From Escherichia coli (GTDB lineage Bacteria > Pseudomonadota > Gammaproteobacteria > Enterobacterales > Enterobacteriaceae): a stretch of 64,000 nt of DNA. Numbering within the stretch: position 1 is the first letter of the stretch; the number at the start of each line of letters is the position of its first letter. Where the stretch lies: NCBI RefSeq assembly GCF_013122565.1, contig NZ_CP053258.1, one strand, 5' to 3'. This document shows positions 20,999 through 21,358 of this stretch, in pieces. Made by a program: the position numbers and the translations under genes. The notes under the pieces are model-generated. The model was given only the letters and a program-made list of their open reading frames with translations. It was not told where the DNA came from and made no database searches.

Positions 20999-21156
20999 GA
21001 TTTACCTGGCCTTTCATTTGTTATGGGTAACGTCAATTTTCTGACGACAAACTCTAATTATCCCAATCGGGAACAGAGATATTGCGGCACCACGACTGAT
21101 ACCCACTAAAACTAATTATTGTAGTCAGATGTCAGGAGTATGTTTGGTACCCATGT

Positions 21157-21173
21157 GAATGATACGGGTAACA
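21157..21173. promoter_or_regulatory. GntR-operator-like palindrome (aatgatacgggtaacat) upstream of gntT
   Basis: Near-perfect inverted repeat; a second weaker copy ttatgggtaacg lies at 21019-21032. Confidence 0.5.
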
Positions 21174-21294
21174 TCTGGCGTTTGAGAATCACCAGAGCGG
21201 GGTAAATTTAAATTATGAGAGGTTGGTCATATTATCGCGGAGAAACGAAGGGAGGGATTTGCCAAAGCAATGCTGCGCCAACGTCTGGCACATG

Positions 21295-21338
21295 TTCAAC
21301 GTAGGCCCGAAATGACGCTTTAGCGTCGCATCGGGCAA
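21295..21338. repeat. REP-like palindrome immediately downstream of nfuA
   Basis: gcccgaaatgacgc ttta gcgtcgcatcgggc imperfect hairpin. Confidence 0.5.
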
Positions 21339-21358
21339 TCTACAAAAGAGGGGATAAC

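Follow-up and report, generated by a model that had tools for sequence, protein, structure and literature searches.

GntR operators, gntT promoter and REP element in the nfuA-gntT intergenic region of Escherichia coli

The region that separates nfuA from gntT in Escherichia coli is, with high confidence, a sigma-70 gntT promoter governed by CRP and by two GntR operators, combined with a REP element that follows nfuA. The analysis was carried out on a 64-kb stretch of E. coli DNA, here denoted the window. The region corresponds to the already known, published gntT control region plus an ordinary REP, and nothing in it is new in kind.

Results

The window carries malQ (17553-19637, plus strand), gntT encoding a GntP-family permease (CDS 19682-20998, start codon 20996..20998, minus strand), nfuA (CDS 21359-21934, stop codon TAA at 21359..21361, minus strand), gntX/yhgH (21993-22739, minus strand) and bioH (22714-23484, plus strand), in the order of K-12 MG1655 but inverted. 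The gntT and nfuA genes were recognized from the list of open reading frames and from Pfam, which detected the NifU and Fe-S_biosyn domains in the nfuA product. Positions 20999-21358 constitute the 360-bp nfuA-gntT intergenic region, which on the minus strand runs from the nfuA stop codon through the spacer to the gntT start codon, and this interval is present in 5,424 of 5,426 complete E. coli genomes. Alignment demonstrated that the spacer is ~99% identical to that of MG1655, with four substitutions and a 1-bp indel, all at ~21240-21263, between the CRP site and a second hairpin described below. The two sequences do not differ at any base between the CRP site (about 21234) and the gntT ATG, and the REP is identical as well. 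The gene order malQ/gntT/nfuA/gntX/bioH together with the ~99% identity to MG1655 identifies the locus as K-12 nfuA-gntT, and comparison with the K-12 gntT region (Porco et al. 1997; Peekhaus & Conway 1998) revealed no difference of substance. A preliminary description of this DNA had listed two GntR-operator-like palindromes and a REP-like hairpin; all three are present in the sequence, with small corrections of their coordinates. That description contained neither the CRP site nor the promoter hexamers, nor the second hairpin.

Operator O1 (ATGTTACCCGTATCAT) occupies 21159..21174 on the minus strand (16-bp core, 21174->21159), and O2 (ACGTTACCCATAACAA) is found in the 5' UTR at 21018..21033 on the same strand (16-bp core, 21033->21018), both identified by consensus and matrix scans and by conservation. 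The palindrome aatgatacgggtaacat, previously placed at 21157-21173 and called near-perfect, does exist and is palindromic, but its true position is one base off, 21158-21174, and the adjective is somewhat generous, as six of the eight pairs of the O1 core are self-complementary. The weaker copy TGTTATGGGTAACG is located at 21019-21032 exactly as claimed and represents the 14-bp core of O2, which has four self-complementary pairs out of eight. Both operators match the 16-bp pseudo-palindrome type ATGTTA-N4-TAACAT. Compared with the GntR consensus ATGTTACCCGTAACAT, which is quoted together with a gntK site in PMC10450161, O1 has a single mismatch and O2 has three; with up to three mismatches allowed, they are the only matching loci in the 64-kb window, where 0.44 matches are expected.

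To score the two sites independently of gntT, we scanned the gntRKU, zwf-edd-eda and idn loci of MG1655 (17.5 kb) with the consensus. All matches fell in regulatory regions: gntK is preceded by a pair of overlapping sites, edd has one site in front of it and another shortly after its start, and a fifth is situated between idnK and idnD. These five sites supplied a matrix from which the gntT sites were excluded. The PWM scan for GntR sites, which the preliminary description had put forward as a check, placed O1 at the top of the 64 kb with 20.2 bits and O2 next with 19.4 bits, while simulated windows gave a best score of 13.0 +/- 2.2 and reached the O1 score in 0.5% and the O2 score in 1% of cases. 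The assignment of both palindromes to the GntR-operator type thus holds against independently derived gntK, edd, idnK and idnD sites. The third-best matrix match in the window (48755-48770, TTTTTACCCGTAAAAA, 17.4 bits) is located inside a hofQ-like ORF of 412 amino acids (47668-48906, plus strand) and is probably a chance match.

Comparison with a published gntT operator gave the same picture, O1 being letter for letter the quoted E. coli GntR operator: a cell-free biosensor paper presents a 16 bp operator, taken from Peekhaus & Conway 1998, that is identical to O1, employs it as a working GntR operator and places it over a -10 reading TATCAT. A separate study describes the natural gntT promoter (gntTp) as having two GntR sites and one CRP site, and a Salmonella study reports that gntT is activated by CRP-cAMP and repressed by GntR. 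These data support O1 and O2 as operators of E. coli GntR, with GntR binding and its release by gluconate taken from the literature. E. coli GntR, which is listed in the LacI/GalR subfamily, contains the Pfam LacI HTH domain (PF00356) and a periplasmic-binding-type sensor domain; Pfam found no GntR-family winged-helix domain (PF00392) in it. Because E. coli GntR belongs to the LacI family, O1 and O2 are LacI-type operators and not GntR-family ones, and we discarded the reading of these sites as operators of a GntR-family (wHTH, PF00392) regulator, since the cognate regulator carries a LacI HTH.

The promoter scan detected a conserved -35-like hexamer, TTCTCA (21183..21188, minus strand), separated by an 18-bp spacer from the -10 hexamer TATCAT (21164->21159, minus strand), which coincides with the last six bases of O1. 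Read from the sequence, the sole departure of O1 from symmetry, a T for A (TATCAT vs TAACAT), would improve the -10. Counting 7 nt on from the -10, the predicted +1 is the G at 21152 on the minus strand, equivalent to MG1655 3,546,405; no gntT entry is found in the supplements of Kim et al. 2012, and the start site stays a prediction of the promoter scan. The GGG at 21152-21150 shows no variation in the E. coli variants aligned.

Upstream of the promoter, a CRP-like site, TATGA-CCAACC-TCTCA, with two mismatches is located at 21216..21231 on the minus strand (centre 21223.5), at -71.5 from the predicted +1. A CRP consensus scan of the window yielded 24 matches vs 25.9 expected, so the gntT match by itself is not above chance, and its half-sites are conserved across genera. 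This putative CRP site was hence assigned from position and conservation and not from the sequence match, with CRP activation drawn from the literature. Between the CRP site and the -35, the cross-genus footprint exposed an A/T tract, AAATTT (21204..21209, minus strand), possibly an alpha-CTD/UP-like contact. At the other end of the leader, a Shine-Dalgarno sequence, AGGU (21004..21007, minus strand), precedes the ATG by 6 nt within a conserved block, and the centre of O2 is separated by 27.5 nt from the gntT ATG and by 141 bp from the centre of O1, at about +127.5 from the predicted +1. K-12 gntT has the same layout, a GntR operator covering the -10, a second one well downstream of it and a CRP site upstream. 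Peekhaus and Conway reportedly placed the sites in 1998 'over -10' and 'around +120', with CRP at -71; the computed O2 centre (+127.5) and this ~+120 are a few nt apart. Rfam detected no riboswitch or sRNA in the gntT leader. An inverted repeat that straddles the transcription start (21126-21141 / 21162-21177) is not conserved and was taken as chance.

In layout, gntT resembles lac. Both combine a LacI-family repressor (LacI itself at lac) with a main operator at the promoter and an auxiliary one further down, within the transcribed DNA, and in both CRP activates from upstream, at gntT from a putative class I position. They differ in that gntT O1 overlaps the -10 whereas lac O1 covers the +1 to +21 region, and in that the auxiliary operator is 141 bp away and in the leader at gntT, compared with 401 bp and in the coding sequence at lac. 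Also, lac has an upstream third operator, which E. coli gntT lacks, while a GntR-like site 120 bp upstream of O1 is present in nine of 34 related species.

The operators of gntKU, edd-eda and idnK/idnD have the 16-bp motif in common with gntT, in different arrangements. The two gntK sites overlap by 3 bp (13-bp offset), whereas the gntT pair is 141 bp apart. In MG1655, the two GntR-type sites of edd are separated by 222 bp; the first is located in the zwf-edd spacer, the second is a perfect palindrome, TTGTTACGCGTAACAA, at codons 5-9, and this layout of a promoter site plus a downstream site is the same as that of gntT. A gntK-like tandem (14-bp offset) is found in gntT homologues of Pantoea, Yersinia, Serratia, Dickeya and Rahnella. 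In Pantoea, Yersinia, Serratia, Erwinia, Dickeya, Rahnella, Brenneria and others, nfuA does not adjoin the gntT homologue, and outside Enterobacteriaceae the two operators, at the 14-bp offset, jointly form one ~30 bp palindrome, ATGTTACCGGTATCATGATACCGGTAACAw.

To follow the control region across species, an unbiased search for GntT-encoding loci was performed, which recovered 80 species; nfuA is directly upstream in 34. In all 34 of these Enterobacteriaceae species O1 is identical at 16/16 positions. O2 is identical, or different only at the outer one or two positions, in 34/34, and its distance to the ATG is fixed at 26.5-27.5 nt. When the last 275 nt of the 34 spacers were aligned, conserved blocks emerged at the CRP half-sites, AAATTT, the -35 region, O1, and O2 with the SD and start, with drift of the leader between O1 and O2. 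The O1-O2 distance is mostly 139-144 bp, with 133, 136 and 147 bp also seen, and only 65 bp in Pseudescherichia vulneris and Escherichia sp. ESNIH1, whose leader is 76 bp shorter and whose O2 reads GCGTTACCCATAACAT.

Within E. coli, 920 of 5,426 genomes carry a spacer allele that is only ~84-85% identical to the window, with O1, O2, the CRP site and the -35 all unchanged. From the -35 to the ATG this allele is closer to E. albertii than to K-12, which points to an old polymorphism or an import. The strains MS1170 and FEA3 and E. albertii served for this comparison. In O157:H7 and other lineage variants flanking bases differ, O1 and O2 never. Short megablast queries over O1/O2 under-count genomes (28-nt word), and blastn and alignments were used instead.

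A third GntR-like site, yTGTTACCCGTATCTT (8-16 bits), was seen directly behind the nfuA hairpin, at a distance of exactly 120 bp upstream from O1 and about -287 to -290 from the gntT ATG, in nine of the 34 species, for example Phytobacter, Kosakonia, Enterobacter sp. Bisph1 and a MAG. E. coli has no counterpart of this site (matrix score below 6), and Klebsiella and Raoultella carry ATGTTACCGCGCAACAT at a similar place.

The hairpin in the nfuA 3' UTR was identified by folding, pattern match and a REP query. The preliminary description had set it at 21295-21338; the hairpin is real and just 3' of nfuA, with its core at 21301-21336 (minus strand, 21336->21301, GCCCGATGCGACGCTAAAGCGTCATTTCGGGCCTAC) and an extended stem at 21300-21344. 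The nfuA stop codon is followed after 14 nt by the outer UGUAG/CUACG stem, and the 92-nt region folds at -32.4 kcal/mol (z -3.2). In 2015 Liang, Rudd and Deutscher reportedly found that a REP located no more than ~15 nt from a stop codon makes ribosomes stall and reduces translation of the gene upstream.

What had been called REP-like proved to be a true REP, as indicated by a pattern match, dispersed copies and similarity to a published query. It is an intergenic, imperfect palindrome of ~35 nt with a GC-rich stem and a terminal GGCCTAC (GTAG on the other strand). The relaxed REP pattern matches the core, with 0 matches expected in shuffles; the strict degenerate pattern does not match, the copy having ATTTC where the consensus has CTTATC. 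The REP is identical at 30/37 positions to GCCTGATGCGACGCTGGCGCGTCTTATCAGGCCTACG, the REP query published in the IS621 bridge-RNA paper, from which it differs by C/G for T/A in the stem (GCCCGA...TCGGGC, a compensated pair) and by a TAAA loop. Searching 5,425 genomes with a 51-nt REP query gave a median of 29 related places per genome (10-46) among the matches listed. Rfam returned a sub-threshold match to the REP-derived naRNA4 (27.5 bits vs a gathering score of 59.5), which merely reflects REP similarity. Repeat features are absent from the K-12 RefSeq table across all 49 kb, making the missing REP annotation uninformative. The nfuA REP thus agrees with known E. coli REPs in length, imperfect palindrome, terminal GGCCTAC, 3'-UTR position, copy number and IS621 targeting; it is single and not part of a BIME pair. 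A second, more canonical REP (GCCGGATGCGATGCTGGCGCATCTTATCCGGCCTAC) is present in the window at 63432-63467, plus strand.

The targeting by IS621 is documented by a clinical isolate (NZ_CM148320.1), in which a 1.28-kb IS621-family (IS110) element is inserted in the nfuA REP at the CT of GGGCCT|AC, in line with the target rule of IS621, the REP CT core (PMC11208160). The insertion covers about 224-1498 of the NZ_CM148320.1 piece analysed, is equivalent to window position 21303/21304 and is flanked by TTTCGGGCCT and CTACGTTG. The target in the nfuA REP reads TTCGGGCCTAC, compared with ATCAGGCCTAC or ATCGGGCCTAC, and is one base off the bridge-RNA-encoded ATCGGGCCTAC. The 360-bp query matched 118 more places than records, and other genomes may also have a split spacer.

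On the other side of gntT, the gntT-malQ spacer of the window (19638-19681) is 44 nt long and contains a mini-hairpin, GCCGGATGC-ATC-GCATCCGGC, while that of K-12 is 110 nt long with two inverted REPs (BIME). Judged by this sequence comparison, the window spacer looks as if 66 bp had been deleted between the two REPs. E. coli genomes show both states, 110 nt in MS1170 and 44 nt in NZ_CM148320.1. Each of the two K-12 gntT-malQ REPs has a Term-seq 3' end, at 3,547,882 (-) and 3,547,980 (+).

At the nfuA REP, Term-seq data (Adams et al. 2021, PMC7815308) likewise list an RNA 3' end, MG1655 3,546,256 (+), in two growth-condition sheets. Transferred by MG1655 alignment, this end corresponds to 21302 on the minus strand of the window, which is the A of CUAC and follows the inner REP stem at a distance of 3 nt. 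The Rho table of the same study gives a termination region with its peak at 3,546,293 (Rho score 5.64, p = 2.9e-34), which is window position 21265, ~37 nt past the mapped 3' end; the region is bicyclomycin-sensitive, and its position is coarse, as it derives from 800-nt comparison windows.

These observations bear on whether the REP matters to its neighbours at all. It could be a selfish or neutral repeat without a role for nfuA or gntT, the mapped 3' end being the passive effect of any stable hairpin; we consider this unlikely yet quite conceivable. REPs are dispersed by the dozen, the type found after nfuA differs between genera, one strain tolerates the IS621 insertion and the adjacent gntT-malQ pair has collapsed in the window's own strain. 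Among 35 species compared, however, a GC-rich hairpin is located 10-30 nt after nfuA in every one despite the turnover in sequence (only 16/35 of these regions fold better than shuffles at z < -2). Moreover, the hairpin defines the observed 3' end, and 'passive' protection would still be the proposed stabiliser function.

Discussion

The data are consistent with a promoter in which -35 TTCTCA and -10 TATCAT would direct sigma-70 transcription of gntT, aided by CRP centred ~71.5 bp upstream of the start (class I activation), while the LacI-family GntR bound at two operators would keep the gene off. GntR on O1 would cover the -10 and exclude RNA polymerase. O2, ~127 nt into the 154-nt leader and just before the ribosome-binding site, would provide added repression, by cooperation with O1 in a loop and/or by blocking elongating polymerase. 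Gluconate would free GntR from the DNA, upon which cAMP-CRP would set the level of expression.

How O2 acts is the part of this scheme for which the species comparison is most informative. Peekhaus and Conway reportedly interpreted their two-operator genetics of 1998 as cooperative or looping. The looping model is weakened, not disproved, by the finding that the O1-O2 spacing varies and strict helical phasing is not preserved. O2 might instead be a stand-alone transcription roadblock before the ribosome-binding site and no loop anchor, stopping polymerases that escape O1 as well as those that read through from nfuA. The distance of O2 from the ATG is constant (-27.5/-26.5) in 34/34 syntenic species, while that between the operators spans 133-147 bp, more than one helical turn, and falls to 65 bp in two species. 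Furthermore, nfuA is located upstream in the same orientation with only a Rho-dependent stop, without a U-tract terminator, and edd likewise has one promoter site and one site just inside the gene. Against this, most species stay at 139-144 bp and the variation in spacing, being correlated with phylogeny, is weak evidence, and the roadblock and loop roles are not mutually exclusive. On balance we regard a roadblock without looping as unlikely, although it would not greatly surprise us. The more specific proposal, that O2 is tied to the translation start and serves mainly as a roadblock insulating gntT from Rho-leaky nfuA read-through, with looping not the main mechanism, is offered tentatively and as rather improbable in this full form. 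The short leader of ESNIH1 and P. vulneris constitutes a natural test case for looping vs roadblock. Our preferred reading keeps O2 as an auxiliary GntR operator that may act in either way or both.

Regarding the nfuA 3' end, the preliminary description left the choice between a terminator and an mRNA stabiliser. The stabiliser, or 3'-end-defining, hairpin is favoured, with the Term-seq end at its base; the terminator half did not stand, because no U-tract follows the REP, the next bases being GUUGAACAUG. The best reading is that the REP sets the 3' end of nfuA mRNA or stabilises it, and does not function as an intrinsic terminator. Rho would end nfuA transcription a few tens of nt downstream of the REP, exonuclease would trim the transcript back to it, and the hairpin would fix and protect the mature 3' end. 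An intrinsic (Rho-independent) terminator could be suspected in a stable GC-rich hairpin directly 3' of nfuA with an RNA 3' end at its base; the terminator scan made no call on the REP, however, and the strong bicyclomycin-dependent read-through in the region (Rho score 5.6) also speaks against it, which renders this alternative very doubtful. The only call of the scan was the second hairpin (21264..21292, minus strand, stem from 21292->21274), which is also seen in the fold and has a weak U-rich tail, GCAUUGCUUU; conservation of this hairpin does not extend to the divergent E. coli allele or to E. albertii.

Action of GntH/IdnR on GntI genes via GntR sites has been reported, and a site of this type, ATGTTACGCATAACGT, is found at idnK/idnD, making cross-recognition plausible; still, that the palindromes serve mainly another LacI-family regulator (the GntR paralogue IdnR/GntH), or are chance palindromes, is extremely improbable, since chance is excluded by the consensus and matrix statistics and by the invariance across species and E. 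coli variants, and the literature attributes the sites to GntR, to whose action that of IdnR would add without replacing it.

Beyond annotation the significance of the locus is small: the element is real and functional, but ordinary. The exercise demonstrates that a first-stage reader is able to spot true operators and REPs in raw sequence. To what was already known, the analysis makes three modest additions: a cross-genus footprint that locates every functional block of the gntT promoter, the finding that the phase between O1 and O2 is not strictly kept across genera, and the connection of the REP with the mapped nfuA mRNA 3' end beside a Rho-dependent stop. For the biology of E. coli, the region represents textbook dual control, by a specific repressor and CRP, of a sugar-acid transporter that is important in gut colonisation.
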